DNA of 64,000 bases from an uncultured Planctomycetia bacterium (GTDB lineage: Bacteria > Omnitrophota > Gorgyraeia > Velamenicoccales > Velamenicoccaceae), in contig CAYYFL010000008.1 in assembly GCA_964471325.1 (NCBI GenBank), positions 20,879-84,878 on the forward strand, written 5' to 3'. The notes beneath the pieces were generated by a model. It searched no databases. It was given only the letters and a program-made list of their open reading frames with translations, and was not told the origin of the DNA. Below, piece after piece: positions 27,421-56,965 of this stretch (the first letter of the stretch is position 1; the number at the start of each line of letters is the position of its first letter). A program made the position numbers and the translations under genes.

Positions 27421-27594
27421 TTATGCGGACAATTCTAGCATGGCTTTCTTCGCGCATCCTGTTGGACCATGAGCGCGTTGCACCCTTTTCCCGCGTCAGC
27501 TCTTGCGGTAGCCTTTTCCAAGCCTTCTCCCGAAGGCTACCGCATGTTTTCTTCCACCCCACCCCCGCCAGCCAGGCGGCCAATAGAAAGGCAG
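27421..27594 (+). repeat. left arm of 174-nt inverted repeat (IR-L)
   Basis: Reverse complement of 56792-56965. By manual alignment the central ~148 nt are identical. GC-rich. Ends 4 nt before ATG 27599. Confidence 0.9.
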
Positions 27595-27598
27595 GATC

Positions 27599-28366
27599 AT
27601 GAAACAAGGTAGGAACACCAAAGAAGAACAAACGCGCAGGATTAAACTTCTGGTTGGCTTTCTATTTACTTTCAGATATGCCACAAGAACCCAGTTGGAG
27701 ACATTCATTCAGTTGATCGTAAATATATCTCATACGCACTGGTTGGTAGATTACTCGCTCAAGAAAGGCTTTGTCAGCGTTTACTACGAACCTGTATTAA
27801 AAACGAAAATCTACTATCTGGGCCCCAAAGGCAAGCAACTAATCTCCCATGAGGCTATGATCGAACATTACCACTTTGAGAAAAGCTATGCTGGGATTAA
27901 TACTTTCGCCCATCAGAATGCCGTGGTTGAGGCCTTCTTCATGCTGAAAAGTCATCTTAATATCCAGGAATGGATCTGCGAATGGGCCTTGCGGGTAGGA
28001 AAAGAGCGCCGTGAAAAGATACCCGATGGATTGCTCGTTTTCCCGGATGGGACAAAGGCAGCCCTGGAGGTAGAGACTAGGTACAAAAAGCTAGATGTTT
28101 TAAGATATTTCGTCAAAAGATACCACTATGACATCACAAGGATCTCCAGATATGACTGCGTTTTGGTTATTTCCGCAAGCAGATTGAATTACGAAGGCCT
28201 GAAAACCCGCTTATACAACATAGCTCCTGAGCTTTGCGCGAGCAGGTTCTTCTTGAGCGACCTTGGCATGCTTGAGCAGGGGATGTGCCTTTATCAGAAC
28301 AAATTGATTCACCTAGAAGATGCCTTTGGATTATTAAGGCAAAATGCGGGGGCAAGCCATGAATAA
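27599..28366 (+). CDS. replication-relaxation (Replic_Relax, PF13814-like) family protein; candidate non-canonical relaxase/accessory
   Basis: N-terminal winged-helix-like part (FRYATRTQLETF). NTFAHQNAVVEAF and IPDGLLVFPDGTKAALEVETRYKK (PD-(D/E)xK-like) follow the Replic_Relax pattern. Adjacent to the coupling-protein gene. Confidence 0.6.
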   Translation: MKQGRNTKEEQTRRIKLLVGFLFTFRYATRTQLETFIQLIVNISHTHWLVDYSLKKGFVSVYYEPVLKTKIYYLGPKGKQLISHEAMIEHYHFEKSYAGINTFAHQNAVVEAFFMLKSHLNIQEWICEWALRVGKERREKIPDGLLVFPDGTKAALEVETRYKKLDVLRYFVKRYHYDITRISRYDCVLVISASRLNYEGLKTRLYNIAPELCASRFFLSDLGMLEQGMCLYQNKLIHLEDAFGLLRQNAGASHE

Positions 28367-30614
28367 GGGCTCAAGTCTTAAGAACGTGTTTATAAGGCTG
28401 TTATTGTTGCTTCCGCTCATCTATGTGGCCATTGGCTGGTCTATAGGCCTGAATTACGCCAGAAAAGGTCTTATTTTGGGACCTTATGGGGATATCCCTG
28501 TGGTTGCGAAAAGAGGGATACTGGGTTCTTCGGTGAGTGATATATCCGGAGGCACAGCCATAGTGTCTATTTTGTCACCACAGCTTGGCGATGACTCAAT
28601 GCATTTCACCATAGAGGGTTATTTTGAGATACCGGAAAGCTGGGTTTTCGATTTTCCACCTGGCTATGGGAAAAACCCTGGATACGGCCTAAGCAGAAGC
28701 TTTCTTTTGACCGGAAGCTATGGGCGGGCTCAAGCGTATGAGCTGAAAGCCCCGGGCCGTTCCATAGGAAGTTTATCCGTCAGCCAGCTGTTTGATTTTT
28801 TAAAGGCTACGGGAAGAACCGGAGACATGGAGAAATTGAGGCCGTATCTGGTTCTTGAAAAGTTTGAAAAGAAATACCCCTGGGCTTATTCTGACACCGT
28901 GCTTTTGTCCAAGACCATGGGAAACATCTTTTCCGAGAATTTCGTTCCCCATGACATCCTGGGTTTGGTTGGGTTATTTGTCTTGGTGATAGCCTTGAGC
29001 GCAAGGAACTTTTGGCTGTGGTTGTATTATCTCTATTGGGTCTTTGCCTATTGGTTCGCTAGGGTCGGCTTCCATGATTCCAATTTTGCTTTTAGCCCTG
29101 AAGGCTGGCAAGTAATCCTCTGGAGCTTCTGGCACGGGTTCATCCAGAAAGAAGGCAGGCTCTTTTTGGTTTGTGCCATGGGGTTGTCAGCCGTTCTTTT
29201 CGGGATTCTGGGATTTTTGTACCTGGTCAAGCACGTTCTGCCGCGCAAAAAGCGTGAGCTGGAGGACTTCCTGAAAGTAGACAAGGATATCCTGAAAAGA
29301 AAGGAGCTCTCTATTGAGAGCGTTGAATTCAAGAAGGTGCGTTACGACATCGACAGGAAACTTGTCCGGTATCAAAAAACAGACAAATACTTTTTGGGTG
29401 TCTCTGATGACAAAGAGGATATTGTCCTTGAAGAGAATATCCTTAACCACCATTTGCACGTATTGGGCTCGACAGGCAGCGGCAAGACCTCCCTGGTCGT
29501 CCTGCCGCTTGCCAGGCAGGCCCTGGATAAAGAGAGAGGATGTTGTTTCATAGACTTTAAAGGGGACGAGGTCTTCAAAAAATATGTCCGGAAGAAGGCA
29601 ATGGAGAATAATAAGAAGTTTTATTACTTCAGCATTGATCCTCATGAGGCGTCGATCGGCTACAATCCGTTGTCTTCAGGGGATATCCTTTCCAAGGTCG
29701 ACAGGATCATGACCGCCCTTGAGTTGATTTATCAGGGGCCGGCCGGTTTTTATTCCAATGTCCAGGCCATGACCTTTGTCGAGCTCTTGAAAAAGATGGC
29801 CAGCCAAAAACAGGAGATCAATTTCCTTCATGTTAAGGAAGACCTGGATGATCCACGTTTCCTTATGTCGGTTGACGTCAAAAGCCAGGAGATCAAGGGG
29901 TTATTGGCTGCGATCTCCTGGATCGCGGGAGTCGACGTTATCAACCGCGATCAACTGGATTTATCCCACGTGATCAAAAACGGGGATGTTGCGTTCTTTG
30001 CCTTAAAGAGCCAGGTGAATACGAGGCTCGCTGAGGCCATAGGCAAGATGCTCATTATCGATTTGAAATCCCAGGCTGTTTTTCGTAAAGAGACGGATCC
30101 GCCCTATTTTATCTTCATCGATGAATTTCAGAATCTGGCTTGTTCGCACTTCGTGGACGTCATCTCCAAGGTCAGGAGCGCGAATTTTTGCCTGGTTTTG
30201 TCCAATCAGTCGCGGGGGAACCTGTCGAGCGTTTCGCATGCTTTCGAAAACGCGATTTTTACCAATACCGCGACTAAGGTCATTTTTACTCAGGAAGACC
30301 CGCTTGACGCAAGATTCTGGTCTGAGAAGACGGGGCAAACTACCTACCAGGACAAGAGCGTTTTTCAGGTGGATACGATGGCCGCGGATAATAAAGGCGC
30401 CAGGCTTGACGGTTTAAGATCCGCCCAGGGCAATATCCATACAGCCAGGAAGAACTATATCTCAGAGAACGTGTTTTTGAGACTGCCCTTTGCCAAATCC
30501 GTAATCTTTTCGCGGGGGAAACTTACCCGCATCGTAAATCATGAGTTTTTATTTAACAAGGCGGAAAGGGACAGGCTCATATCCCTGCCGTTCGAAAATA
30601 AGGAAAGCAGGTAG
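28344..30614 (+). CDS. type IV coupling protein (TraD/VirD4-family ATPase)
   Basis: N-terminal TM region. Walker A HLHVLGSTGSGKTS, Walker B YFIFIDEFQNL, later LVLSNQS. ATG 28359 is an alternative start. Confidence 0.85.
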   Translation: MRGQAMNKGSSLKNVFIRLLLLLPLIYVAIGWSIGLNYARKGLILGPYGDIPVVAKRGILGSSVSDISGGTAIVSILSPQLGDDSMHFTIEGYFEIPESWVFDFPPGYGKNPGYGLSRSFLLTGSYGRAQAYELKAPGRSIGSLSVSQLFDFLKATGRTGDMEKLRPYLVLEKFEKKYPWAYSDTVLLSKTMGNIFSENFVPHDILGLVGLFVLVIALSARNFWLWLYYLYWVFAYWFARVGFHDSNFAFSPEGWQVILWSFWHGFIQKEGRLFLVCAMGLSAVLFGILGFLYLVKHVLPRKKRELEDFLKVDKDILKRKELSIESVEFKKVRYDIDRKLVRYQKTDKYFLGVSDDKEDIVLEENILNHHLHVLGSTGSGKTSLVVLPLARQALDKERGCCFIDFKGDEVFKKYVRKKAMENNKKFYYFSIDPHEASIGYNPLSSGDILSKVDRIMTALELIYQGPAGFYSNVQAMTFVELLKKMASQKQEINFLHVKEDLDDPRFLMSVDVKSQEIKGLLAAISWIAGVDVINRDQLDLSHVIKNGDVAFFALKSQVNTRLAEAIGKMLIIDLKSQAVFRKETDPPYFIFIDEFQNLACSHFVDVISKVRSANFCLVLSNQSRGNLSSVSHAFENAIFTNTATKVIFTQEDPLDARFWSEKTGQTTYQDKSVFQVDTMAADNKGARLDGLRSAQGNIHTARKNYISENVFLRLPFAKSVIFSRGKLTRIVNHEFLFNKAERDRLISLPFENKESR

Positions 30615-38348: not shown

Positions 38349-38787
38349 AAGATTTGCAGTTCTATTTTCCATCTTATGGCTGGCCGGTTGTTGCTCTTTG
38401 GGTCCAGCGGTAAAGAAGAGAAACGACTATGAACAGGGCTACAGGCAAGGAGTCCATGAGAATATCCATGATTTTGCCCAGAGTTTCTATGGCAACGAGT
38501 TTCCTTATTTTTACTGGCAGAGCCCTGTTGTCCAGAATGTGAATATCCCGGCTCATATTGAGAACGGGTTATTCATTCCTGAGCATAATGAGCCGGTCAT
38601 GATTGAGCCTGGTGCATGGAGAAAGAGATTCGGCTACCCGATTAGGGTTGCGAAGAATAAGCCGGACAAAACAGAAGGAGAGGATTATGCGCTCAAGTAT
38701 TTTGATTTTGATAGCAGGGATATTACTGTGTTTCCCGAATCCTACGCAGGCGATAAACCAGGAAACGAAAACAAAGATTCTCGCTAG
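38335..38787 (+). CDS. lipoprotein upstream of secretin (PilM-position; possible pilotin)
   Basis: MVYAKRFAVLFSILWLAGC lipobox. GAGGAG RBS. The 3' 101 nt overlap the secretin ORF in another frame. Confidence 0.45.
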   Translation: MVYAKRFAVLFSILWLAGCCSLGPAVKKRNDYEQGYRQGVHENIHDFAQSFYGNEFPYFYWQSPVVQNVNIPAHIENGLFIPEHNEPVMIEPGAWRKRFGYPIRVAKNKPDKTEGEDYALKYFDFDSRDITVFPESYAGDKPGNENKDSR

Positions 38788-41409: not shown

Positions 41410-41428
41410 GCGGAAGGAGGTGGAACCG

Positions 41429-41656: not shown

Positions 41657-41729
41657 CGATCAATCAAAGAGCTCATCCGGTGCATTTAGGGCCGGATGAG
41701 CTTGGAGATTTTTTAAGAAAATAAATCCC

Positions 41730-42855: not shown

Positions 42856-42858
42856 AAT

Positions 42859-44499: not shown

Positions 44500-45705
44500 A
44501 TGCATTACAGATACAACGTTCTTTCACGGACCGGCAATGAGATAAGCGGCGTCGAGCAGGGCTCTTATCAGGCGATCAGGGACAAACTAAAAGACAATAA
44601 TTTTCACATTCTGTCCCTGGAGCCCGACCTTGTTAAGTCTATCGAATTTTACCTGAAAAGAAAGAGGGTCAGGGTCCAGGCCTTGGCGGAACTTTTTGAA
44701 GACCTTTCCAACATCTTGGAGAGCGGCCTGAGCATGAACGAGGCCATTATGACGCTTGAAGAATCCAGCGTTGAACCGGTCTTAAAGCACGCTCTTTCGC
44801 AGATCAACGACAGCCTTGCCACGGGCATTTCATTGGCTGAGGCTTTTAGCCGCACAGAAGTCTTCCCCTGGCAGGTTCTCAATATGGTCCGGGTCGGCGA
44901 GAAATCCGGAGGTCTTGAGCGGGTATTCAGGGATCTGGCAGGGTATTATTCCAGGGAGGCGGACTTTTTACGCAGTTTAAAAGGCGCCCTGGTTTATCCG
45001 GCGGTCGTGCTCTTTCTGCTTGTCGCGGTTATGTTTTACGTTTCTTTCCAGGTGATCCCACATCTGGAATCGCTCCTGCCGTTAAAGGAGAATGCCTATT
45101 TTTTCACGCGTCTGCTTTTGTCTTTGAGCCATGGCCTGAGGGATTATTGGTTTATGTATCTGGTTATTCCTGTTGCCTTGGTTTTTCTTTATTCAAAGCT
45201 CAAGATAAGCCAGGTAGAGCGTATAAGGGATTTTTACTACAGGATCCCCGTCTTAGGCCCTTTGATAAAGGACGTGGCTTTCAGCTTTTTGTTTTCCAAC
45301 CTTGCGATCCTGCAAAGAAACGGCATCAGCGTCATCGAGGCCCTTTCCCTGGTCCGCGAGACGGCCTTTGACAAGTTCTTTGCCGGCAAGATCGCCAAGG
45401 TCAAGGACGCCGTCGTCAGCGGGTTGAGCCTGTGGCAGGCTTTAAAACACGATGCATTTTTCCCGAAGTCTGTCTACTCAAGCATCAGAAAAGGCGAGGA
45501 GATGGGCAACCTTGACAGATACCTGCAGAGCCTGGCGGATTCGTATTTCAAGAAGGTGACCAGGAAGATCGATGCGCTTCTGGGTTTTATCCAGCCGGCA
45601 TTTTTGATGCTTTGCGGGATTCTTCTGTTATTCATCGTCTCGGCGTTTGTCATACCTGTCTACAGCAATCTTTCGAATATCGCAGGCGGGAACGTCAAAT
45701 TCTAA
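44500..45705 (+). CDS. type IV pilus platform protein (GspF/PilC family; R64 PilR-position)
   Basis: Two repeated T2SSF-type domains with three TM helices. Starts directly after the ATPase stop. Confidence 0.9.
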   Translation: MHYRYNVLSRTGNEISGVEQGSYQAIRDKLKDNNFHILSLEPDLVKSIEFYLKRKRVRVQALAELFEDLSNILESGLSMNEAIMTLEESSVEPVLKHALSQINDSLATGISLAEAFSRTEVFPWQVLNMVRVGEKSGGLERVFRDLAGYYSREADFLRSLKGALVYPAVVLFLLVAVMFYVSFQVIPHLESLLPLKENAYFFTRLLLSLSHGLRDYWFMYLVIPVALVFLYSKLKISQVERIRDFYYRIPVLGPLIKDVAFSFLFSNLAILQRNGISVIEALSLVRETAFDKFFAGKIAKVKDAVVSGLSLWQALKHDAFFPKSVYSSIRKGEEMGNLDRYLQSLADSYFKKVTRKIDALLGFIQPAFLMLCGILLLFIVSAFVIPVYSNLSNIAGGNVKF

Positions 45706-45718
45706 AAGGAGGTGGACA

Positions 45719-46144
45719 ATGAGGAACAAGAAGGGTTTTACGTTGATCGAACTGGTCCTGGTCATCAGTATCATCGCGCTTCTCATCATGGCCGTGGGTC
45801 TGGCTTCAGGTGTCAGGGAAAACGCCAAGATCCACTCAGCCGCGGAGTCCGTCAAGTCTTTAAGGACTGCTGCGGAAAGCTACATTGCTTCAGGCAAGAT
45901 AACGTATGAGGGGATTGCAGTTTCCGAACTAAAGACTGCCGGCTACTTACCCGAGAGTTTTTCGGAGACAGGATCAAATCCGTGGGGAGGGGATTACGCG
46001 GTCGTACCGGACACAGACCCCAGCAAGGTGGATATCTCCTTAACACAGGTCAGTACTTCCGGCGCAGCACGGCTTTCAGCCTTGTTTGCCAACAGCGCGA
46101 CAGCAACGAGCTATTCATCCGGAACATGGACTGCGACATTCTGA
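45719..46144 (+). CDS. type IV (pseudo)pilin with class III signal peptide
   Basis: MRNKKGFTLIELVLVISIIALL: prepilin cleavage/methylation motif G|FTLIE. AAAGGAGG RBS. Confidence 0.85.
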   Translation: MRNKKGFTLIELVLVISIIALLIMAVGLASGVRENAKIHSAAESVKSLRTAAESYIASGKITYEGIAVSELKTAGYLPESFSETGSNPWGGDYAVVPDTDPSKVDISLTQVSTSGAARLSALFANSATATSYSSGTWTATF

Positions 46145-46596
46145 AAAAGGATGGTTTTAGCTTAATTGAACTGAGCCTTGTTTTCGCGATAGCTTTCCTA
46201 TCGCTGGGGGCGGCTTTTTATTCTGCGGCCAGAATGAGGCAGAGCGCTCTAGCCATGAGGACGATCCAGGAGCTGGATGCCTTGGCGAGCGCAAGCGCTC
46301 AATATTACCTGGAGAGCGGGGCGTGGCCGCAAGATGTGGCGGATCTGCGGCCCGCCTACCTCAGTCCTCAGGCAACAGACGTTAATCCTTTTGGCAATGT
46401 TTATGCCATAACAGGCGGCGCCTCAAGCGTCACTGTTTCGACAGCGCTGCCGAAGGGGCTCATAACGCCTGAAAATTCTGGCAGCGAGATTGTGGTTCAG
46501 AATCAAGGCGCCAATGATCTGGTCAGCGTCGCAAGGTCCGTTGAGAGCACAACGTGGGGACTGCAGTATGACAAAAAGAATATCTTCCATCAATAA
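46126..46596 (+). CDS. type IV minor pilin
   Basis: MDCDILKKDGFSLIELSLVFAIAFL: prepilin motif G|FSLIE. Overlaps the previous gene by 19 nt. Confidence 0.75.
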   Translation: MDCDILKKDGFSLIELSLVFAIAFLSLGAAFYSAARMRQSALAMRTIQELDALASASAQYYLESGAWPQDVADLRPAYLSPQATDVNPFGNVYAITGGASSVTVSTALPKGLITPENSGSEIVVQNQGANDLVSVARSVESTTWGLQYDKKNIFHQ

Positions 46597-47401
46597 AAAG
46601 GGATTTTCCTTAATCGAGCTATGCATTGTGATGGGGGTTTTGGCCATCCTTGCTTCATCCATCACGCCGGTCTTTATCAAAAGGATTCAGATCAAGGCAG
46701 CTGAAAAGACCGCGCTTGAAATGGCCAATATCCAGCAGGCGGCTTGCGCTTATTTTGTCACAAACGACGCCTGGCCTGACAGTATTCAGACGCTGGAAAC
46801 AGCGGGCTATCTTAATCCTTCTTGGAGCGCCAACAATCCCTGGCAGAATGCGTATAACATTTCATCGACGGCAACAGGCTTCAGCATCACGACTGTGGTG
46901 CCTCAGGAATGGACCAATCTTGTCGCAGGAAACTTGCCTACGAGCTCGGTCGCCGGCGGATCCGTGACGAGCACGGTTTCGGTGCCGGGGGCTATGCCTA
47001 ATGAATCGCTTCCTGCAGGCGCCATCGTCATCTGGTCCGGAACTGTTGCCAGCATTCCTTCGGGATGGCAGCTCTGCGATGGGACCAACGGTACGCCTGA
47101 TTTAAGGGACAGGTTCGTCGTAGGAGCAAGCCGGGATGTGGGAAGTATGGCTGAGACCAATGTCTTAGGGGTTTTGACCAAGGCAGGAGGTGAGGCCAAA
47201 CATACCTTGACCATAGCCGAGATGCCCCCGCATGCGCACTCTTACCGCTGGTGGAACGCATGGTATTTCTCGGGTAGTTCCGAGCTTGGCGCTAAAGGCA
47301 GTTATAATGACAATGCCCAGACAGGTATTACAGGAGGCGGGCAGCCTTTTGATATGCTGCCGCCTTATTATGCCCTATGTTTTATCATGAAGATGCCTTA
47401 A
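46568..47401 (+). CDS. type IV pilin fused to phage tail-collar (PF07484-like) domain; candidate tip adhesin (R64 PilV-position)
   Basis: N-terminus KKGFSLIELCIVMGVLAIL. C-terminus GWQLCDGTNGTPDLRDRFVVG...GGEAKHTLTIAEMPPHAH...GGGQPFDMLPPYYALCFIMK reproduces the collar-domain signature (GW..CDG, PDLRgRf, GGe..h.Lt..e.P.H.H, qP..n.pPy....yiI). Confidence 0.8.
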   Translation: MTKRISSINKKGFSLIELCIVMGVLAILASSITPVFIKRIQIKAAEKTALEMANIQQAACAYFVTNDAWPDSIQTLETAGYLNPSWSANNPWQNAYNISSTATGFSITTVVPQEWTNLVAGNLPTSSVAGGSVTSTVSVPGAMPNESLPAGAIVIWSGTVASIPSGWQLCDGTNGTPDLRDRFVVGASRDVGSMAETNVLGVLTKAGGEAKHTLTIAEMPPHAHSYRWWNAWYFSGSSELGAKGSYNDNAQTGITGGGQPFDMLPPYYALCFIMKMP

Positions 47402-47619: not shown

Positions 47620-48132
47620 TTATATCCCGAGGGTCTTCTTGATGTCTTTTATTAAAAGATACAAGTGCAATGGATCAATCGGTGAAGGTTCAAAGCCGAA
47701 ATGTTCATAAAATGATTTAGCACGTTCGTGTTTCGCATGGACGAAAATAGCCCGTCCGCCAATACTGTCAGCCGCGGCAACAATGCGCACCAGCGCATCG
47801 CGCAATAAGGCTTTGCCTAGACCACTACCTTGTTCGATTTTATCGACAGCCAGGCGCGCAAGAATGACCACGGGGACAGGATGGTTGGCCAATCCTTTGC
47901 CTACGCGTTGAGGGGTATCCTCTTTGCTTATGGAGCCGGGGGTGAGGGTGTAATATCCCACAACCTGCTTATTTTTGGTTGTGACATAGGTTCTTGAAGA
48001 ACCATTTTGGTTATTGATGAGCGCAAATTTTCGCAGGTAGGAATTCAGGGCTTCATCCCCGCAATCAAAATCATCGATTGCGTGAGATTCATGGAGCAAA
48101 ACAGGAGTGTCTAAAGAAGATCCTTTACTCAT
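47620..48132 (-). CDS. GNAT-family acetyltransferase toxin (TacT/KacT-like)
   Basis: FDCGDEALNSYL, YVTTKNKQVVGYYTL and RLAVDKIEQGSGLGKALL are typical of DUF1778-partnered GNAT toxins. Overlaps the antitoxin stop by 8 nt. Confidence 0.8.
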   Translation of the reverse strand: MSKGSSLDTPVLLHESHAIDDFDCGDEALNSYLRKFALINNQNGSSRTYVTTKNKQVVGYYTLTPGSISKEDTPQRVGKGLANHPVPVVILARLAVDKIEQGSGLGKALLRDALVRIVAAADSIGGRAIFVHAKHERAKSFYEHFGFEPSPIDPLHLYLLIKDIKKTLGI

Positions 48133-48400
48133 TAAAAATGTTTTGTTCCTGGAAAAGCTTCTTAAGCCTGGGGATTTCTCTGGCCGGGCTATCAAGAGCG
48201 GCACAGAAGGCTTTCCATTGGGCTTGAGGCAGTTGGAAGTGGGTTTTGTCGGCTATCAATTCTTCCGCTTCTTTCAAGGCGCTATCGAGAACAAAAGCTG
48301 ATAGCTTCTTGTGATGAAGGGAGGCCGCATATACAAGAAGATTTTTTTGGGAGCTCTCAATGCGTAAATCAATACGTCTATTTTTTTGTGCTATGGCCAT
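48125..48400 (-). CDS. DUF1778-family RHH antitoxin (TacA-like)
   Basis: RIDLRIESSQKNLLVYAASLHHKKLSAFVLDSALKEAEELI matches the DUF1778 pattern. ATG 48400 is preferred to the track start. Confidence 0.85.
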   Translation of the reverse strand: MAIAQKNRRIDLRIESSQKNLLVYAASLHHKKLSAFVLDSALKEAEELIADKTHFQLPQAQWKAFCAALDSPAREIPRLKKLFQEQNIFNE

Positions 48401-48450
48401 GATTCGTCTCCTTTCTTTAGGTAATAAAAATATAACATATAGTACACACA

Positions 48451-49377
48451 TTGTCCACACTAAATTTAAAATATTTTAAAAAGGCATTTAGCCTCATTTT
48501 GTTGCTAAGCCTGTGTTTTGTTTCCAGCAGGGCTAATGCCCTTGAGCTTGGCGATATCTCCGGGATGATTGATTGGAATTGCCTGGATCTAAAGGTGATC
48601 GGAACCTGTGTTGGGCCTTTTGGCATGCCTGGCATTATCATTATGTACTGGGAGCCGGCACTTCTCATTGAAACTGTCAAGCGGCCCGGTGATACGGTTA
48701 TCGGATCGTTGCAACCCGAGCTCTCAAATCTTGTGACCCAGGCCGTCAAGGATTTCGCTAAAAGTTTAGGCGCATCATCCATGCCTGTTTCAAGCGGATC
48801 AGGCTCATCGAAGATCGATGAGACGAACCTGCAATTTAATGAGGCGCACGTGTATGGGCTTCCTTTTAAAGATGAGATTATGGCATCTTTGGGCATGACA
48901 TGCCCGGACAAGCTTCCGACAGGTTCTTTGATCAAATATCTTTCAGAACTGGATGCTTCGGAGTGGCGAATTGGGGTTCTGGAAGCCTCTAACCCCAAGA
49001 GCATGGCTTCAGCTGCAGCTGGCCCGGCCTGCGCTGTGATAGCCAGTTTTATGAATGATTTGTGCATGGGGTATTGGGGAGCGACCTATCCAAGAAGAGG
49101 CTTTTTTACGCATCAAAGCCAGGTCGTAGGAAGCGCGGTTGCAGCGGTCCGGGCTGTGAGCATTGCTTCAGGTTTAAATATACCTGGACATGTTGTTTTT
49201 GAAGGCACTGGTTTTGTGCCGTTTTTTGAAAACGACAAGCTGCAATTGATTTATCCTGTTGTATCAGGGTGCATCAAAATAGGCCAGAATCCGGCATCCT
49301 GGGAATCCGGCAAGCTGTCCGCTTCAGGCAAATACCTGTGGCTGTATTGGCGAAGAAGAATATGCTGCGTGTATTAG
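48451..49377 (+). CDS. traU: TraU-like periplasmic T4SS protein
   Basis: Signal peptide. MYWEPALLIETVKRPGD parallels F TraU SMWEPARLIEFQRVPGC. TTG is the only possible start before the signal peptide. Confidence 0.75.
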   Translation: MSTLNLKYFKKAFSLILLLSLCFVSSRANALELGDISGMIDWNCLDLKVIGTCVGPFGMPGIIIMYWEPALLIETVKRPGDTVIGSLQPELSNLVTQAVKDFAKSLGASSMPVSSGSGSSKIDETNLQFNEAHVYGLPFKDEIMASLGMTCPDKLPTGSLIKYLSELDASEWRIGVLEASNPKSMASAAAGPACAVIASFMNDLCMGYWGATYPRRGFFTHQSQVVGSAVAAVRAVSIASGLNIPGHVVFEGTGFVPFFENDKLQLIYPVVSGCIKIGQNPASWESGKLSASGKYLWLYWRRRICCVY

Positions 49378-52096: not shown

Positions 52097-52273
52097 ATGG
52101 TAAAAATTGAAACTTATCTTACGGTAAGGCAAGTTGCGAGACAGCTGGGCTTATCGGAATATATGGTTAGGCAGCTTATCCGCGATAAGGAAATGCGGGC
52201 GACAAAAATCAGACAGTGACGAGTAAGGCCTGAGGATTTAGATAATTTTATCAGGGCGAGGACTAAAAAGTAG
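52097..52273 (+). pseudogene. excisionase/AlpA-type HTH gene interrupted by an in-frame TGA at the conserved Trp position
   Basis: Manual translation gives MVKIETYLTVRQVARQLGLSEYMVRQLIRDKEMRATKIRQ-TGA(52217-52219)-RVRPEDLDNFIRARTKK-TAG. The family consensus is ...vkiGrrWripredLe.fl. Confidence 0.5.
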
Positions 52274-52365
52274 AAAGTGTTAAAGACAATTATTCCCTTA
52301 CAAAAACAGGTCGTTAATGGAAGCTGTCTTTGTTGTTTCAGAGATTTAATAGGGAGGTTTAAACA

Positions 52366-54039
52366 ATGAAGAAGAAATCACAGATTAAGCAATTGGAATT
52401 ACCATTCAAGGTTAATAAGGAAGTCGTTAGCCATTTGAGTTTGGGCTTATACAGAAATTTCGCAAGAGCGATTAAGGAACTGATCTCTAATGCATACGAT
52501 GCTGGTGCCACAGAAGTTAAAATCAAGCTGGATCTCGATAAGGCAGAGATTATTGTGAGGGATAACGGCCATGGGATGAGTCTCGAGGATATCGAAAATA
52601 AATTTCTTACAATTGGTTTTGTAACTTCTCCATCTGACAAACCAGATGAACTCGGAAGATATCGAATAGGCACATTTGGGATAGGTTGTCTTTCTGTTTT
52701 TCCATATTGCGATACTATCCATGTAATAACAAAAAAACGAGACAATGACGAATTAATTGAGCTAAATATTGTAACGCAGCGTTTTTTCAGTGGGGTACCA
52801 TCTGATATTGACAAAGAAAAGGCACAATGTATTATTCATAAAAGCGATTTACCCAAAAAAGAGGGGGAAACAATCATATCTCTGAAAAACATAAAACCTC
52901 ACCTAATTAAAGAGCTGCGACAGAAACGAGGCTCTGGTTGGTCCAGCATAGATAAGTTTAGCGGTTTTGAAAAATTTAAATGGACACTGAGTCAATATGC
53001 GCCAATTGAGTTTTCTTCGGATCATAAAGAATTACATGATTTTTTCAGCGTGTCTAAAAGAGTCTCCATGAGACTATGGCTTGATGGAGAAGAGCTTTTT
53101 CGGAATATTCCTGAAAATATGGAAATCCTTGAAAAAGGAGAAGAAAAATTTGGGAAAGTCGTAGTTAAATATGTTATTACAACATCAAAAAAACCGGTCG
53201 AGCCAGAGGAAGCAAGAGGGCTGCAAGTCAGACTCAGAGATGTCGCAGTGGGATTGCCAACGGATTTTGAGGTTACAAAATTTACTGGCAAAGTTCCAGG
53301 GAAATTGAATTATTTATCAGGAGAAGTCTGCATTATGGAGGGTCTTGATTCAGCGCTTATGATTGACAGAGATAATTTTTCGTATACAGAAGAAGTGGCT
53401 GAAATGCAGGAGTTTTTCAGAAAGAAGCTGATTAAATGGAACGACGTTCAGGAAAAGTGGGCTTCAAAAGACAAGGATATTTATGAAGCATTGATGCCGC
53501 TGAAAGATTCTGAGCCGATAATCAATGAATTGAAAAAAGCAAAAATAATCCATTTCTCAAAAGAAAGATTAAGGCTTCCTAGGGAGTCTTTAGTAAAAAG
53601 AGTCAAAGACAAGTTGATCTCGCCAGCTGAAACAATAAAAAAGGCGCTGTCTGATAAGACGGATTTTAAGATCATCTCAAAGAAGCAAAGTGTTAAGGCT
53701 AATCAGCCTGCATTGGAAATCAAGCAAAAAGAAAAATCAATAGTTATTTATGAGGATCATCCTGAATTTTCTGAAATAATTGAAGTTGAAAACAAGAAAT
53801 TTTCTGTCCTTTACGATGAGTGGAATTACAAGAAAACCCAGTATGCATTGTGCAAATTTGAGAAAGACGAAAAGAACGTTGTTTTTAACTCATCTCATCC
53901 TCTCTTTAAGAGCAAAATAAATGATGAGATTATTAAGAGAATAGCCCTTGGTTTCCTCTTGATTGCTAAGAATAGGAAGGATGGGGGAAAATTGCTCAGT
54001 GAATTAAATGGCCTCCTTGAAGATGTGTTCAAGAGATAA
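52366..54039 (+). CDS. GHKL-superfamily ATPase (HATPase_c_3 / MORC-paraMORC-like)
   Basis: Bergerat-fold boxes: N-box KELISNAYDAGA, G1 VRDNGHGMS, G2 IGTFGIGCLS. The ~380-aa C-terminal region is unassigned. Confidence 0.8.
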   Translation: MKKKSQIKQLELPFKVNKEVVSHLSLGLYRNFARAIKELISNAYDAGATEVKIKLDLDKAEIIVRDNGHGMSLEDIENKFLTIGFVTSPSDKPDELGRYRIGTFGIGCLSVFPYCDTIHVITKKRDNDELIELNIVTQRFFSGVPSDIDKEKAQCIIHKSDLPKKEGETIISLKNIKPHLIKELRQKRGSGWSSIDKFSGFEKFKWTLSQYAPIEFSSDHKELHDFFSVSKRVSMRLWLDGEELFRNIPENMEILEKGEEKFGKVVVKYVITTSKKPVEPEEARGLQVRLRDVAVGLPTDFEVTKFTGKVPGKLNYLSGEVCIMEGLDSALMIDRDNFSYTEEVAEMQEFFRKKLIKWNDVQEKWASKDKDIYEALMPLKDSEPIINELKKAKIIHFSKERLRLPRESLVKRVKDKLISPAETIKKALSDKTDFKIISKKQSVKANQPALEIKQKEKSIVIYEDHPEFSEIIEVENKKFSVLYDEWNYKKTQYALCKFEKDEKNVVFNSSHPLFKSKINDEIIKRIALGFLLIAKNRKDGGKLLSELNGLLEDVFKR

Positions 54040-54047
54040 GGGTTACT

Positions 54048-54773
54048 ATGGCAGATTTAGACACGCTGAGAGGGCAACTAATAGAGGAGCTGTGGCTTCC
54101 TGTTGTTAAAGAAGCAGGCAAACATTTTTATGGTAGGCGAAAGAATAAAAGAATGAGGCTTTTTACGCTCACAGATGGAGTTCTTTTCGGCGAACTGATA
54201 AGATTTGAGGGGGAGGGCTTGATACAAAGAGGAGATGCTGTATTGTGGGTTAGCAATATGATTAAAGCAGTCAGGGCGGAAACAGAGTCAAGAGGCTCTG
54301 TTTATAGCGGCTCAATATGCGACGAGGAAGTGTTAGGCACAGTATGCCCCTTAAGATCCTTGTTTCCATGCGATATTTTGAATCTTGATTTTTCATCACA
54401 AGATTATAATTCTAATAATCAAAGAATTGAGAAAGAGATAGGGAAAACAGAACAATTTTTGTGTTTGCAGAACCAAAAGCGCAATCCTGGGTTCGTAGTC
54501 TTGCAGAGTACTGTTATTGATGCAGAGGTTTTAGATAGGGATGCTATCAAAAATTTTTCTGATTCTATGCACGAGAATGACTGGGGTGGTTTGACAATAG
54601 ATGGCTTTCCTCAACTTGTTGCAGACAATGGGCAAAAGAGGAATTTTATCAAACAAGTATTGCAATCCTTGGGTCAGAAATATAAATACAGAGCTTTAAA
54701 AATAACAGATGCTGTTAAGATAATTGATGCCAACCAGCAACTAATTTCAATAGCTGGTATTTTTACGAGGTAA
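54048..54773 (+). CDS. hypothetical protein (possible Rossmann/methyltransferase-like fold)
   Basis: Tightly packed in the operon. LFPCDILNLDFSSQD resembles the D.i.LDpfG-type motif of some MTase-fold proteins. No confident family. Confidence 0.45.
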   Translation: MADLDTLRGQLIEELWLPVVKEAGKHFYGRRKNKRMRLFTLTDGVLFGELIRFEGEGLIQRGDAVLWVSNMIKAVRAETESRGSVYSGSICDEEVLGTVCPLRSLFPCDILNLDFSSQDYNSNNQRIEKEIGKTEQFLCLQNQKRNPGFVVLQSTVIDAEVLDRDAIKNFSDSMHENDWGGLTIDGFPQLVADNGQKRNFIKQVLQSLGQKYKYRALKITDAVKIIDANQQLISIAGIFTR

Positions 54774-54777
54774 CAAT

Positions 54778-55563
54778 ATGAAAACCTTCAGATCAGACAG
54801 ATTGCCTAGATTGACGAAAATTATGTATGACAGCCAACTCAGGCTGAATACTAAAAATTGGGAAGATACACTAAAAGCGAACCATCAAGAAGTTGAGCGG
54901 TTGTTGGAAATGATAAGCATTTTCGATTCCTGGAGAACTTCTTTGGAACGAGCTTACGGTGATGTAGCTAGGGATTTAATTAAAGAAACATTTATGGATG
55001 CTTATATGTCTGTGCATTTTGCTTGTATGGCCTTATATAAGCAAGCCCATGTATCTTTGAGGACTGAGCTTGAGACAGCTTTAAGGTTAGTATATTTTTC
55101 TAGCCATCCCGTTGAATTCAAGTGGTGGAGGGATGATAAAGATTATTTTCATGGGAGACATGTTTGGGGAGATAAATTTGATTATTTCAGAAATTTAGAA
55201 TATTTTCAGCGCTTTGAACAGCGGGCAGTTAAATTATTTGAAACAGAAAATAGGAATAATCCAAATAATATAGGGAAACTATATAAAATTTTATCGAAGT
55301 ATGTGCACAGCGGCTTTCCAGCTTTTTTAACAACCATGCAAAGCGTTGCTCCAGTATATAAACGAGCAGACCTTAATCTTTGGATTGTTAATTTCAAAGA
55401 GGTCCAAAAATGCATTAATACTATTCTTGCTTTGGGTTTTTCTGCTGAATTTAAAGCCTTTGATGCTATTGTACAAAGGAATGTCTTAAGAGTGATCAGA
55501 GACAGAAATTATAAGCGTGGTTTAAAACAGGTGTTAGGGTTACGAATTCAAGGACGTATATAG
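54778..55563 (+). CDS. hypothetical all-alpha protein (weak HEPN/Abi-like features)
   Basis: Tightly packed in the operon. Contains an Rx6H string (RLVYFSSH) and LSKYVHSG. No confident family. Confidence 0.45.
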   Translation: MKTFRSDRLPRLTKIMYDSQLRLNTKNWEDTLKANHQEVERLLEMISIFDSWRTSLERAYGDVARDLIKETFMDAYMSVHFACMALYKQAHVSLRTELETALRLVYFSSHPVEFKWWRDDKDYFHGRHVWGDKFDYFRNLEYFQRFEQRAVKLFETENRNNPNNIGKLYKILSKYVHSGFPAFLTTMQSVAPVYKRADLNLWIVNFKEVQKCINTILALGFSAEFKAFDAIVQRNVLRVIRDRNYKRGLKQVLGLRIQGRI

Positions 55564-55566
55564 AAA

Positions 55567-56658
55567 ATGGGACAAGAAGCGATCGAAAATCAATTGGATA
55601 TTTTGCATAAGGCTCCTTCTACTAGATATCAGGGAAGCAAGAGAAGCATATTAGCTTGGATATACGAAAACCTAAAAGACATTCAGTTCGAAAGTGTCCT
55701 TGATGGCTTTGGGGGGACGGGAAGCGTCAGTTATTTATTTAAACTGATGAATAAGAAAGTAACGTTCAATGATATCCTTCCGTCAAACCATATGACGGGC
55801 ATTGCTCTTATTGAGAATGATTGCATAACTCTAGATGAAGATGATTTAGAGTTTATATCCCACCGAAATGGCTTCAACTATCCGACTTTCATCGAAGACA
55901 CCTTTAAAGGAATATATTACACTTCTGGTGAGAATAGGTTGCTTGATGTGTTGGCCTTAAATATAAGGATGCTTTCTGAAAAATATCAAGGCGATGTTTT
56001 AGCCAAGAAACAGGCGTTGGCTTATTATGTTTTGTTTCAGGCTTGTTTATGTAAACGGCCTTTCAATCTCTTTCATAGAAAAAATCTCTCACTTAGGACT
56101 GCGAGAAACATAAAGAGAACATTTGGAAATAAGAAGACTTGGAATACTCATTTTGAAACATTTCTAAAAAGATTTAATGCAGAGGTTTCCCAGAAAGTCT
56201 TTTCCAATGGTCTTGTAAATAAAGCCATTTCCCAGGACATTGTGGCTATAAAAAAGGAAGATTTTGACCTTGTGTATTTAGACCCACCCTATGCAAGAGC
56301 AGATGAAAAAACACCAAAAGATTATCACGAGCTGTATCATTTTCTCGACGGTTTTGTTGATTATGATAATTGGCCGAAAAATATAAATTTAAACACAAAT
56401 AATAAGAGGATGTTTAAGCAAAAAAACCATTGGGATGAAGGAAAGATTGAAGACAACTTTGATGCTTTGTTCAGGAAGTTTAAGGATTCAATAATTGTTG
56501 TCTCCTACGGAGAGCCCGGATTCCCTTCCATTTATAAAATCAAACAGCTTCTTTCGAAATATAAGTCAAAAGTAAAAATTGCCAAAAAGGAATACAAATA
56601 CAAGTTGAATCACCGGAACGGGCACGGCTTATATGAGGTTTTAATAATAGGGGTTTAG
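55567..56658 (+). CDS. Dam-type (D12 class) N6-adenine DNA methyltransferase
   Basis: N-terminal YQGSKRSILAWI, SAM motif DGFGGTGSVS, catalytic LVYLDPPYA. Confidence 0.85.
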   Translation: MGQEAIENQLDILHKAPSTRYQGSKRSILAWIYENLKDIQFESVLDGFGGTGSVSYLFKLMNKKVTFNDILPSNHMTGIALIENDCITLDEDDLEFISHRNGFNYPTFIEDTFKGIYYTSGENRLLDVLALNIRMLSEKYQGDVLAKKQALAYYVLFQACLCKRPFNLFHRKNLSLRTARNIKRTFGNKKTWNTHFETFLKRFNAEVSQKVFSNGLVNKAISQDIVAIKKEDFDLVYLDPPYARADEKTPKDYHELYHFLDGFVDYDNWPKNINLNTNNKRMFKQKNHWDEGKIEDNFDALFRKFKDSIIVVSYGEPGFPSIYKIKQLLSKYKSKVKIAKKEYKYKLNHRNGHGLYEVLIIGV

Positions 56659-56791
56659 CATGATATATACTTTTGATGAAAGAAATCCCGCCAAAGATTG
56701 GGACACTTCTTTCCTTTTAGTTTCTCATCCTATTTTCTTACAATGCTTAGAAATTCCCCCTCAAATTACTTCTGAATGGAATATAAGATTT

Positions 56792-56965
56792 CTGCCTTCC
56801 TATTGGCCGCCTGGCTGGCGGGGGTGGGGTGGAAGAAAACATGCGGTAGCCTTCGGGAGAAGGCTTGGAAAAGGCTACCGCAAGAGCTGACGCGGGAAAA
56901 GGGTGCAACGCGCTCATGGTCCAACAGGATGCGCGAAGAAAGCCATGTTGAAATTGTCCGTATAA
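56792..56965 (-). repeat. right arm of 174-nt inverted repeat (IR-R)
   Basis: Reverse complement of 27421-27594. Lies between the methylase and the PIN-like gene. Confidence 0.9.

Follow-up and report, generated by a model that had tools for sequence, protein, structure and literature searches.

The 64-kb window analyzed here (the whole stretch of DNA, to which positions refer unless stated otherwise) is a conjugative element integrated into an Omnitrophota chromosome; Ca. Velamenicoccus archaeovorus LiM carries a related one. The window contains two inverted, near-identical copies of a non-coding site, one of which abuts the gene of a candidate relaxase. We propose, with middling confidence, that these copies represent a duplicated, inverted oriT or relaxosome site of the element. 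An earlier sequence-only reading had named four options for the repeat without choosing among them: a substrate for inversion, a duplicated oriT or relaxase-binding region, a structured RNA gene, and a MITE-like insertion. The second option is the best supported by sequence comparison, because the site is conserved and non-coding, abuts the relaxase gene, forms a hairpin in which one arm is invariant and the other covaries, and has a conserved inverted second copy. The MITE option is refuted and the RNA option has little support.

Organization of the element and its inverted repeat

Omnitrophota, a phylum of nanobacteria most of which are uncultured, count a predator of archaea among their members. 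Conjugation in this phylum is hardly described, and we found no description of the present element in the literature searched. For transfer it encodes a MOBC-like Replic_Relax protein and a type IV coupling protein (T4CP), together with an F-like T4SS and a type IVb pilus. The leftmost conserved gene is TraG_N (25985-27355, + strand), and the true left boundary of the element lies upstream of it. The relaxase candidate (27599-28366, + strand) is followed by the T4CP gene (TraG-D_C / TrwB_AAD_bind; 28344-30614, + strand) and by the F-like T4SS genes, encoding a pilin and TraL/E/B/V/C/U/F/H (30647-51882, + strand). Embedded in the latter block are a type IVb pilus cluster (secretin, T2SSE, T2SSF and PilS-like pilins) and, on the - strand, a TacA/GNAT toxin-antitoxin pair. 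A variable cargo follows (52097-56658, + strand) with HTH_17, a GHKL ATPase, two unknown ORFs and a D12 N6-adenine methylase; relatives hold different cargo at this position. Pfam searches of most ORFs of 25.7-64 kb, and precomputed Pfam calls for the whole related element on contig JACQXK010000009.1, revealed no integrase or excisionase-integrase pair, and transfer as an excised circle is therefore not certain.

A repeat search over the whole window found a single inverted pair, formed by positions 27421-27594 (left copy, + strand) and 56792-56965 (right copy, - strand), which are 174 nt long, 97% complementary and separated by 29,197 nt. The near-perfect repeat reported by the sequence-only reading is thus real. 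Base-by-base comparison gave five mismatches (27425, 27435, 27436, 27438 and 27587) and an identical core of 148 nt at 27439-27586 (+ strand; 56800-56947 on the - strand), which we interpret as a gene-conversion tract. The length of this core had been given correctly, but its coordinates (27438-27585) were one off, and the weak similarity said to continue for about 20 nt exists on the outer side only, provided that a 4-nt indel is allowed. The arms are indeed GC-rich in AT-richer surroundings, with 57% GC against 34-44% in the four 500-nt flanks and 45% in the whole element.

The left arm lies in the TraG_N-relaxase intergenic region and ends 4 nt before the relaxase ATG (27599), as had been noted, and the right arm lies between the D12 methylase gene and ORF165. 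The gene content described earlier also holds: the Replic_Relax and T4CP genes, the T4SS/pilus block, the GHKL ATPase and the D12 methylase are enclosed by the arms, and TraG_N and a ThiF/JAB cassette (60978-62574) lie outside. The right copy has a conserved outer flank (57039-60045, + strand) composed of ORF165, a structured unit, SpoVG, a second structured unit, orf94 and DUF6876. Between the arms and the conserved ends of the element there is thus one gene (TraG_N) on the left and the short orf94-DUF6876 module on the right, in agreement with the view that the arms are subterminal and not simply element termini.

A chance origin of the repeat is excluded because it extends over 174 nt at 97%, and an assembly foldback is excluded because a closed genome (V. 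archaeovorus) has the same architecture with diverged arms. Short-read contigs of two assemblies (ERZ27257500 and SRR8476420) stop within the arms, so that in the present contig the way the 29-kb segment is oriented rests on the assembler.

Conservation of the two copies across relatives

The family is widespread in Omnitrophota and comprises at least 184 TraH and at least 145 relaxase cluster representatives. All ten loci with upstream sequence (the window, L005-L011, L031 and L142) have a copy immediately 5' of the relaxase gene, and in nine of them (L005-L010, L031, L142 and the window) TraG_N adjoins this left copy on its outer side. A T4SS-less module of relaxase and T4CP (L144-L149), only 50% identical, carries a shorter relative of the copy, which fits only the centre of the profile (nhmmer E about 2e-6) and in which GACGGCTACCGCA replaces GAAGGCTACCGCA.

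An inverted second copy is present in five elements (the window, V. archaeovorus, JACQXK010000009.1, L016 and L034), positioned beyond TraH and variable defence cargo. Its outer flank is conserved as well, with orf94 in four of the five elements and DUF6876 wherever the contig reaches. In three elements the two copies are found on a single molecule, with 26.6-30.1 kb between them. In the closed V. archaeovorus genome they occupy 604,587-604,826 (+) and 634,963-635,223 (-) of that sequence, while in JACQXK010000009.1 the arms are 170 nt long and 26.6 kb apart. The identity between the arms amounts to 97% in the window, 94% in JACQXK010000009.1 and about 52% in V. archaeovorus. Since the arms are near-identical in two elements and strongly diverged in the third, the duplication is old, and its copies have been homogenised by gene conversion. 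The sequence-only reading had suggested gene conversion or very recent duplication; the former agrees with these data, but the latter does not, as the two-copy layout occurs in clades with proteins only 60-72% identical.

Scans beyond these loci added little. In L137/L138 and L141, the 10 kb around TraH yielded no right copy, with cargo filling or overrunning that range, and no second copy was found within 10 kb on either side of the T4SS-less module L156, an element that extends beyond that range. A 16-mer scan of JGI metagenomes returned mostly chance matches, with L031, L034 and L053 as the only family members among the matches listed. A hairpin-only pattern scan of IMG/VR gave two matches, both inside unrelated coding sequence and attributable to chance.

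The conserved hairpin and its invariant motif

The core of each copy is a conserved hairpin (27505-27543, + strand; mirrored at 56843-56881) with a variable 5' arm GCGGTAGCCTT (27505-27515), a 17-nt loop and a 3' arm AAGGCTACCGC (27533-27543). This pairing and the alternative AGCCTTC-TCCC-GAAGGCT, both described earlier, are present. The motif CGAAGGCTACCG (27531-27542, + strand; 56844-56855 on the - strand) is invariant in all 14 aligned copies, and identity falls to about 40% in its flanks; it is a candidate relaxase recognition or nic-proximal sequence. Its upstream complement pairs with it at 11 or more positions in 13 of the 14 copies. Covariation was read from pairing tables drawn up for each sequence, in place of a column-wise count on a MAFFT alignment, in which the 5' arms of different clades do not line up. 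Two compensatory changes were found, with G-C replacing U-A in L144 and A-U replacing G-C in the right copy of V. archaeovorus. Wobble changes occur at three positions, and the window shows a re-created 5' arm. The wobble changes favor the sense strand, and energies computed with DNA parameters are mixed. Downstream of the hairpin lies a C-rich, G-poor tract with repeated CCA/CCCA (27553-27575, + strand), which may contain the binding repeats of the relaxase wHTH domain. Two traits of an oriT are thus found here, namely a non-coding cis site beside the relaxase gene of its own element and a hairpin with a conserved 3' arm, the 5' arm of which varies with compensatory and wobble changes.

Other identities of the site were considered. 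Gene finders called a 78-aa ORF across the left arm (27366-27602, + strand), which we judge spurious: L005, L007 and L008 have it interrupted, and relatives read through the invariant motif in different frames. An intrinsic terminator does not fit either, as a T-run follows the hairpin in the window's clade only and a scan found no terminator in the arms. Little speaks for the structured RNA gene proposed earlier, given that the window has no match at the Rfam gathering score, that whole-arm folding reaches z-scores of only -1.5 and -1.1, and that just one hairpin is conserved. The region 56600-59400, with the right arm included, gave no relevant Rfam match at E ≤ 1, and a known RNA family, for lack of a covariance-model match in Rfam, was rejected as the identity of the arm.

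The candidate relaxase

The gene next to the left copy encodes a 255-aa protein with a predicted wHTH and a predicted PD-(D/E)XK-like domain, a MOBC-type relaxase candidate. It matches Replic_Relax (PF13814) with 27.2 bits at a curated cut-off of 25.3, and its homologues are named ‘replication-relaxation family protein’ by NCBI. Residues P142, D143, E157 and E159 are invariant across 28 homologues, and K163 is nearly so. Foldseek searches with the AF2 model (pLDDT 83.7) returned weak matches throughout (E 0.02-0.1), to the PD-(D/E)XK nucleases NucS/EndoMS, Can2 and YaeQ and to the wHTH proteins MarR/PadR, while a sequence profile search of the PDB yielded nothing meaningful. In every locus, the T4SS-less modules included, the genes for the relaxase and the T4CP overlap. 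Homologues were not found in viral contigs, nor by blastn or tblastn in plasmids; the plasmid searches also gave no match to known oriT or relaxase sequences and no blastn match to the arm.

Plasmid pTEF1, typed MOBC by MOB-suite, offers a point of comparison. Its sole gene annotated as replication-relaxation family protein matches PF13814 with 28.5 bits. The plasmid is related to pAD1, and we take this protein to be the counterpart of TraX. Aligned by hhalign, the relaxase candidate and the pTEF1 protein share a collinear D..ExE..K pattern, but the alignment is weak (E 0.15, reported probability 0.4). PD-(D/E)XK relaxases are the least understood kind of relaxase and are not known to form a covalent intermediate. 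The domain order predicted for the candidate would match that of MOBC relaxases, PD-(D/E)XK enzymes that carry a wHTH at the N-terminus (PMC12857230).

A duplicated oriT as the favored interpretation

In the proposed arrangement each copy would comprise the hairpin with the invariant 3' arm CGAAGGCTACCGC, a short conserved segment on its 3' side and the C-rich repeat tract. This site would be bound and nicked by the 255-aa protein with its predicted wHTH and PD-(D/E)XK domains, which would pass the nicked strand on to the F-like T4SS. Of the two copies, the left one would be ancestral and relaxase-proximal, and would also provide the relaxase-T4CP operon with its leader and ribosome-binding site; the right one would be an additional site at the distal end of the T4SS and cargo module. 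Gene conversion would keep the copies alike in most elements. As a by-product, recombination between the copies, either by RecA or as relaxase-mediated oriT-oriT recombination, may invert the 29-kb segment. Nicking, the initiation of transfer, the strand used and the activity of both copies are predictions drawn from comparative sequence data.

Alternative explanations

It is possible, though on balance somewhat unlikely, that the arms are duplicates of the control region (promoter/operator plus 5' leader) of the relaxase-T4CP-T4SS operon, autoregulated via the wHTH protein, with the right copy acting as second operator, decoy or start of an antisense transcript. In the antisense variant, a transcript from the right copy into the cargo and the T4SS operon would terminate or tune read-through. 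The left copy does reach the ribosome-binding region (AGAAAGGCAGGA; 27585-27596, + strand) and the start codon of the relaxase gene, and the initial prediction for Replic_Relax proteins was a role in transcriptional regulation (PMC3424549). AGAAAGGCAGGA is also kept in the right copies of the window's clade, and in L016 the right copy even includes the initial 10 nt of the relaxase ORF. Moreover, the C-to-U changes in the 5' arm preserve G-U pairs on the sense strand only, as an RNA would predict. However, the right copies of the distant clade (L139 and L034) lack the ribosome-binding segment, yet they keep the hairpin and the C-rich tract, and no gene lies downstream of any right copy in the sense direction. 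A consensus scan found no convincing sigma-70 promoter in either arm: the left arm has one weak site matching 9 of 12 positions at its outer edge, about the level of shuffled sequence, and the right arm has none. The missing terminator, the unexceptional folding of the whole arm and the missing Rfam match count against this explanation too. Since the copy overlaps the relaxase leader and ribosome-binding site, part of the conservation of the left copy is an ordinary expression signal. It is common for oriT regions to overlap promoters, and for this reason the oriT and the regulatory interpretations are compatible.

Programmed inversion appears improbable as the main function of the arms. In this scenario they would flip the 29-kb relaxase-T4SS-cargo segment, such that the neighbor of the relaxase operon alternates between the TraG_N side and the orf94/DUF6876 side, altering its expression or leading region. 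The upstream signals of the operon would be kept in either orientation, because both arms carry the same leader and ribosome-binding site. The very junction expected from an inversion is seen in L053, where a relaxase gene on the - strand and the R-type outer flank with orf94 and DUF6876 diverge from a single copy, and this contig is one of only three family members that the context-blind motif scan recovered among the matches listed. But L053 is a 2.3-kb short-read contig, a misjoin across the repeat would look identical, and the reciprocal junction (TraG_N-copy-cargo) was not seen. The arms of two elements (97% and 94% identity) are similar enough for RecA, and MOBC, MOBF, MOBP and MOBH relaxases have been reported to recombine paired oriTs (PMC5714925). 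Against this, the three elements in which a single molecule holds the two copies share one orientation, including the closed V. archaeovorus genome, in which the arms are too diverged for RecA. The Pfam searches described above (most ORFs of 25.7-64 kb and the whole JACQXK element) likewise gave no serine or tyrosine recombinase and no DDE enzyme that could serve as dedicated site-specific recombinase. Known invertible segments (fim, hin, shufflons and invertons) have repeats of 10-40 bp and an adjacent dedicated invertase, and flip promoters or gene ends. The present case resembles them in that inverted repeats flank a segment and L053 shows a flipped junction, but it differs in the size of the repeat (about 170 nt) and of the segment (29 kb), and no invertase was found in the scanned ORFs.

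Transposon terminal inverted repeats, or a MITE inserted twice, with the 29-kb unit or each arm being self-mobile, are very improbable. A large gene block is bracketed by inverted repeats, and these are GC-rich islands in AT-richer DNA, but the outer flanks are conserved together with the arms (TraG_N in nine loci, orf94 in four of five), so the arms are not a mobile boundary, and the true left boundary lies upstream of TraG_N. The MITE-like insertion proposed by the sequence-only reading fails on the same grounds: the window has two copies only, the copies occupy the same two gene contexts with none dispersed among the fetched loci, no direct repeat or target-site duplication adjoins the arms, a Pfam scan of most ORFs of 25.7-64 kb found no transposase, and the plasmid collection has no match. 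These results largely refute MITE, IS or transposon ends as the identity of the arms.

A false overlap that attached the right arm and all following sequence to the contig is barely credible. The short-read contigs do end inside the arms, and the exact ORF165 and DUF6876 proteins right of the right arm have no match in the contig collection. But the five mismatches and the differing edges of the arms show that they represent two loci, not one, cargo runs into a right copy in L013 and L014, a right copy runs into ORF165 in the independent contig L016, and the closed genome shows the same layout.

Comparison with known duplicated origins

Taking the arms as a putative duplicated oriT, a close parallel is found in IncX plasmids (R6K, R485 and pOLA52), which have two oriTs inside long inverted repeats, one of them beside the relaxase gene (PMC3402527). 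Both systems have inverted copies of a (here presumed) transfer origin in repeats of more than 100 bp, one by the relaxase gene and the other distant, beside other functions. IncX plasmids, however, belong to Enterobacteriaceae and use a TaxC relaxase with a TaxA accessory protein and a VirB-type T4SS, and the function of their oriTs is demonstrated. The Omnitrophota system is chromosomal, with an F-like T4SS and a PD-(D/E)XK (Replic_Relax/MOBC-like) candidate, shows no sequence similarity to them, and its oriT role is predicted. Its site is an analogue of the IncX duplicated oriT and not a member, because plasmid blastn and tblastn gave no match and the relaxase family is different.

ICEclc has two functional oriTs (PMC5812530), and relaxase-dependent recombination at oriT has been described (PMC5812530, PMC5714925). 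Like the presumed situation in Omnitrophota, it is an integrative conjugative element with one relaxase recognizing two origins, but it differs in its MOBH relaxase, its tyrosine integrase and its machinery of the ICEclc/ICEHin1056 family, and there is no sequence relation.

With TraX of pAD1, compared via the pTEF1 protein, the candidate shares its size (about 255-261 aa), a Replic_Relax score just above the threshold and the D..ExE..K pattern; in both systems the relaxase gene is near the T4CP gene, and the oriT (putative in our case) is near the relaxase gene. The relation is at family level only (hhalign E 0.15, with an empty plasmid tblastn). In addition, pAD1 has a Gram-positive host and a different T4SS, a paired inverted layout is not described for it, and the Omnitrophota site has its own invariant motif. 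TraX combines a wHTH with PD-(D/E)XK architecture (PMC12857230). It is described as binding short direct repeats tens of bases from nic (Francia & Clewell 2002 and Francia et al. 2013, cited in PMC12857230 and PMC5714925), and it is listed among the relaxases able to recombine oriT copies (PMC5714925).

Implications

For genome analysis, the repeat is a predictable breakpoint of short-read assemblies and marks an insertion hot spot for defence cargo. For the study of transfer, the family offers a compact, testable cis site, with an invariant 12-mer on a covarying hairpin beside a candidate relaxase. If the copies are indeed transfer origins, the conserved inverted pair would be a second, phylogenetically remote example beside the IncX plasmids and ICEclc, and the question why elements keep two origins would therefore become approachable by comparison.

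A further reading, quite unlikely in our estimation, is that the two opposite-strand oriT-like sites act as a pair in a non-excising, integrase-less, chromosomally fixed conjugation system with a non-covalent PD-(D/E)XK relaxase. Sites firing outwards would export chromosomal DNA of both sides in a bidirectional, Hfr-like manner, and sites firing inwards would deliver both complementary strands of the 29-kb module; relaxase-catalyzed inversion between the sites would switch the mode. If this were true, a chromosomally fixed system would serve gene exchange in the ultra-small, host-dependent Omnitrophota.

Organization of the inverted repeat

A repeat search of the whole window returned a sole inverted pair, at 27421-27594 (+) and 56792-56965 (-), with arms of 174 nt that are 97% complementary and separated by 29,197 nt, in agreement with the sequence-only reading. 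Base-by-base comparison located five mismatches (27425, 27435, 27436, 27438, and 27587). The perfect run spans 27439-27586 (= 56800-56947); its length of 148 nt had been proposed correctly, but with coordinates one base off. The arms have a GC content of 57% versus 34-44% in the four 500-nt flanks. The ATG of the Replic_Relax gene (27599) lies 4 nt past the end of the left arm, as first described, and both pairings suggested as alternatives are present in the arm sequence, with the 11-12 bp pairing prevailing in the predicted fold of both strands. TraG_N lies outside the left arm. Between the arms are the Replic_Relax gene, the coupling protein (T4CP), an F-like T4SS into which a type IVb pilus cluster is embedded, followed by HTH_17, a GHKL ATPase, and a D12 methylase, while ORF165, SpoVG, orf94, DUF6876, and ThiF/JAB lie outside the right arm. 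This is the gene content that had been assigned to the inside and outside of the arms.

The pilus cluster (38603-47401), kept in all relatives, sits in the middle of the T4SS gene set and comprises a secretin, a T2SSE ATPase, a T2SSF platform, a PilS-like pilin, and a further prepilin whose match to the phage tail-collar domain is weak and below threshold. A pair of a TacA-type antitoxin and a GNAT acetyltransferase toxin (47620-48460, -) is located between the pilus genes and TraU; it is also found in Ca. Velamenicoccus archaeovorus and is missing from the relative loci L016, L139, and L141.

The left copy as a conserved non-coding site

The 240-nt gap between TraG_N and the relaxase gene can be aligned across all relatives. 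Core identity between clades goes down to about 40%, with CGAAGGCTACCG unchanged in 14 out of 14 aligned copies. Gene callers place an ORF of 78-90 aa at the left copy, which is interrupted in three relatives (L005, L007, and L008), and the reading frame through the invariant motif varies between relatives. Conservation thus acts at the nucleic-acid level. In the window this ORF (78 aa, 27366-27602) has an ATGA overlap with the relaxase start; it is not preserved as an open frame, and its presence in public annotations probably reflects erroneous gene calling.

The invariant motif supplies the 3′ arm of a hairpin; in 13 of the 14 copies, at least 11 of its positions pair with a complement upstream. 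A per-position pairing table contains two compensatory changes, U-A to G-C in L144, a distant relaxase and T4CP module, and G-C to A-U in the right copy of V. archaeovorus. The motif of the L144 element reads GACGGCTACC, with a matching upstream AGCCGTCG. C-to-U changes at three positions of the 5′ arm retain G-U/G-T pairs. The ancestral 5′ arm has decayed in the window, where a new perfect complement, GCGGTAGCCTT, is found immediately 3′ of the old arm. Past the hairpin, all copies in the T4SS-bearing family have a tract that is rich in C, poor in G, and contains between two and eight overlapping CCA/CCCA motifs; the distant L144 copy is devoid of this tract (9 C in the stretch, one CCA). The arm as a whole is not unusually structured (folding z of -1.5 and -1.1), and the Rfam search proposed earlier matched it to no family.

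The right copy and a cargo hot spot

Right copies were sought around TraH homologues by motif search and nhmmer profiles. Four more elements proved to have an inverted second copy: V. archaeovorus (L015 17628-17888, minus strand, at a distance of 30.1 kb from its left counterpart in this closed chromosome), L016 (15067-15326), JACQXK010000009.1 (L139 15947-16118; a blastn match of 170 nt, 94% identical to its own left copy 26.6 kb away), and L034. The right copy lies beyond TraH in all five elements, window included. Outward of it, orf94 is encoded in four out of five (the exception is V. archaeovorus), followed by DUF6876 in the three elements whose contigs extend far enough. The inverted second copy is a conserved feature and no accident of the window contig.

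The block between TraH and this copy is different in each of the four elements where the stretch was fetched. It encodes a GHKL ATPase and a D12 methylase in the window (52097-56658), type I restriction-modification in V. archaeovorus (L015 11775-17582), a LexA-like protein with E2/ThiF in L016 (11288-14943), and SpoVG with ThiF/JAB in JACQXK010000009.1. In two other relatives, at least 10 kb after TraH, filling the fetched range, is occupied by AbiEii and a large DUF4011 helicase (L138 11287-20863) or by a reverse transcriptase, a Cas4-like protein, and Mrr (L141 12184-21281); any right copies of these two would lie beyond that range. The stretch is an insertion hot spot for varied, mostly defence-type cargo.

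Age and homogenization of the pair

Between the left and right copies, the core shows no difference in the window, is 94% alike in JACQXK010000009.1, and is alike in only about 52% of aligned columns in V. archaeovorus. The two-copy layout is thus old and selected independently of arm identity, and high identity, where present, results from gene conversion. Of the two origins offered by the sequence-only reading, conversion thus stands and a very recent duplication does not. The V. archaeovorus right copy is nearer to the left copy of L006 (71%) than to its own partner, which argues that parts of the element were swapped between lineages. The end point of the conversion tract varies: in the window and in JACQXK010000009.1 it lies 4 nt and 15 nt, respectively, short of the relaxase ATG, and in the L016 right copy it lies 10 nt inside the ORF. 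Since right copies of the distant clade have no RBS segment and keep the hairpin and the C-rich tract, the copies would share a function distinct from relaxase translation.

The neighboring relaxase candidate

The 255-aa protein next to the left arm matches the Pfam family Replic_Relax barely over threshold. This family was placed in the PD-(D/E)XK superfamily, usually fused to an HTH, by Steczkiewicz et al. (PMC3424549). P142, D143, E157, and E159 are invariant in 28 homologues, and K163 nearly so. The AlphaFold model (pLDDT 83.7) has weak structural neighbors of the two expected kinds, namely PD-(D/E)XK nucleases (NucS/EndoMS, Can2, YaeQ) and MarR/PadR winged helices. Plasmid pTEF1, which we take to be closely related to pAD1, is typed as MOBC by MOB-suite and has one gene for a 261-aa ‘replication-relaxation family protein’ near its T4CP gene, which we take as the TraX counterpart. 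That protein matches the same Pfam family (28.5 bits) and aligns collinearly to the Omnitrophota profile with D..ExE..K in register, although weakly (hhalign E 0.15, reported probability 0.4). MOBC relaxases (TraX of pAD1, MobC of CloDF13) are PD-(D/E)XK enzymes; TraX, with a wHTH at its N terminus, binds to five direct repeats that lie 70-120 bp from nic and acts with no detectable covalent intermediate (2025 review, PMC12857230). We have moderate confidence in the predicted PD-(D/E)XK catalytic fold. The relaxase gene always overlaps the T4CP gene, T4SS-less modules included, and the protein was therefore filed as a Replic_Relax/MOBC-type relaxase candidate.

Modules of relaxase and T4CP with no adjacent T4SS were seen in L144-L153, L156, L157, and L012. 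L144 and its relatives have the order HTH_36, a shorter relative of the copy, relaxase, T4CP, Imm_superinfect, Fic, SNF2/PLD helicase, and MmeI-type methylase; in L012, relaxase and T4CP are followed by DUF6876 about 1.9 kb on. This suggests that they are mobilizable relatives of the element. Among contigs of this kind, four Logan contigs from different runs each begin at exactly 30 nt upstream of the relaxase ATG, as would be seen at the edge of a repeat.

Host range and boundaries of the element

An 80-kb ENA metagenome contig and one Logan contig encode the window relaxase with exactly the same residues. Relatives at 60-92% identity are Omnitrophota throughout, including the closed Ca. Velamenicoccus archaeovorus LiM chromosome. 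With at least 184 TraH and at least 145 relaxase cluster representatives, the named ones all from this phylum, the family is widespread in Omnitrophota.

Upstream of TraG_N, the window and L005-L008 encode unrelated proteins, and the JACQXK010000009.1 element is flanked by housekeeping genes (to its left folE and others, to its right genes of fatty-acid synthesis). This identifies an integrated element with TraG_N as its conserved left end. The complete JACQXK010000009.1 element (L142 and L139) spans about 122.3-153.3 kb, with arms about 1.7 kb and 2.2 kb inside its left and right ends. The arms are thus subterminal rather than terminal, and conserved genes continue beyond them, in line with the initial view that they are not simply element termini. 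Neither the Pfam-scanned ORFs of the window (most of those in 25.7-64 kb) nor the Pfam calls precomputed for the complete JACQXK010000009.1 element include an integrase, resolvase, or DDE transposase family; apart from small HTH_17 (excisionase-like) ORFs, nothing of this kind was seen. An IS200-type Y1_Tnp gene adjoins the left element end in one genome only.

The left 25.6 kb of the window (1-25628) has 53% GC versus 45% in the element, and its annotated right-hand part encodes ordinary metabolism (PPDK_N, DUF3313, a methyltransferase, an MR_MLE enolase-superfamily enzyme, and DUF819), which places the boundary between host and element at about 25.6-25.98 kb. In JACQXK010000009.1, a direct repeat of 45 nt without mismatches (L142 13619-13663 and L139 11320-11364, 18.4 kb apart) lies on either side of the block that runs from the pilin genes to TraH.

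Structured units beside SpoVG and orf94

A structured unit of about 270 nt occurs twice in the window (+), at 57600-57870 and 58971-59246, each ending in a strong Shine-Dalgarno directly before a small gene (SpoVG, 57871-58176; orf94, 59247-59531). Further copies are located in L016 (15909-16180, 17303-17576), L053 (640-960), L139 (12590-12925, 16445-16765), and L034 (two copies). In the RNAalifold consensus of nine copies, 17 of the 42 pairs show compensatory changes. Single-sequence folding gives a z of -4.0 when the unit is treated as RNA (+ strand) and of -6.8 when it is treated as ssDNA (- strand). The loop GTGGTCTGCCTC is common to two internal hairpins, a TTGACA/TTGACT box is conserved, and Rfam has no match. 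The unit may represent an mRNA leader not described before, or else a single-strand promoter belonging to a leading region, and may be more novel than the inverted repeat. The 13-mer ATTTCGTCAACAA, which forms the hairpin loop of the oriT-like copy in L009 and other distant-clade copies, is also found at 57629-57643 in the 5′ half of the first unit, beside SpoVG, with the variant TTTTCGTCAATAA in the second unit. Its occurrence in both settings hints at a possible shared protein-binding site.

Proposed function of the paired sites

An oriT is typically a non-coding site at the relaxase gene with a hairpin, a conserved 3′ stretch, and a repeat-like tract tens of bases off. The copy described here is conserved, non-coding, and abuts the relaxase gene. 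Its hairpin combines an invariant relaxase-proximal arm with a distal arm for which pairing is enough, and is followed on the 3′ side by a short conserved stretch and, some tens of bases away, by a repeat-like tract. As our preferred reading, we give an even chance to the arms being two inverted copies of the oriT or relaxosome site of the element, the left one doubling as leader of the relaxase-T4CP operon. Nicking at the copies by the relaxase, its polarity, and activity of both copies are what we infer for such a putative pair. The wobble pattern hints that the hairpin may act on the relaxase-sense strand, in which case the two sites would point towards each other; DNA-parameter energies do not decide between the strands. 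It seems rather improbable that the element does not excise and uses its two opposed sites for bidirectional chromosomal export or both-strand delivery.

IncX plasmids have two oriTs within long inverted repeats, one of them beside the relaxase gene (PMC3402527), and ICEclc has two functional oriTs (PMC5812530). The likeness to IncX plasmids lies in two inverted origin copies with one at the relaxase gene, although the Omnitrophota sites are candidates only; that to ICEclc lies in two origins within one element, functional in ICEclc but putative here.

Inversion of the segment between the arms would yield the junction seen in L053, a 2.3-kb JGI contig recovered solely through its 16-mer, where the copy lies between a relaxase gene (-) and, on the other side, 460 nt, orf94, and DUF6876; the 460 nt are homologous to the outer flank of the right copy in L139 and L034. 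Relaxases (TraX, NikB, TrwC, and that of ICEclc) are reported to recombine paired oriTs (PMC5714925), the arms are alike enough for RecA in two elements, and with the same leader on both arms the relaxase operon would retain its upstream signals in either orientation. Against a programmed switch, a short-read misjoin across the repeat would yield exactly L053, no invertase is present among the scanned ORFs, and the three long records share one orientation. We consider inversion quite unlikely as the primary function of the arms and likely as an occasional consequence.

The MITE-like insertion raised by the sequence-only reading, or transposon ends in general, was rejected, with only two copies, always in the same two contexts, conserved genes running on outside the arms, and no target-site duplication, no transposase among the scanned ORFs, and no match in plasmid records. 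An intrinsic terminator is dismissed because the T-run is restricted to one clade and the arms yielded no terminator-like site, and a known RNA because Rfam has no match. Against an assembly artefact, the arm edges differ, each junction is present in independent contigs, and the layout recurs in a closed genome. Two assemblies do have contigs that break within the arms, which is what an exact repeat of 148 nt would be expected to cause.

The literature searched describes neither this element nor its relaxase or repeat. Paired inverted oriTs are known in principle; novelty lies in the phylum concerned, in the kind of relaxase, in the chromosomal and integrase-less setting, and in the pair being conserved throughout a family. 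With the function proposed here, the pair would bear on the unresolved question of why an element keeps two origins.
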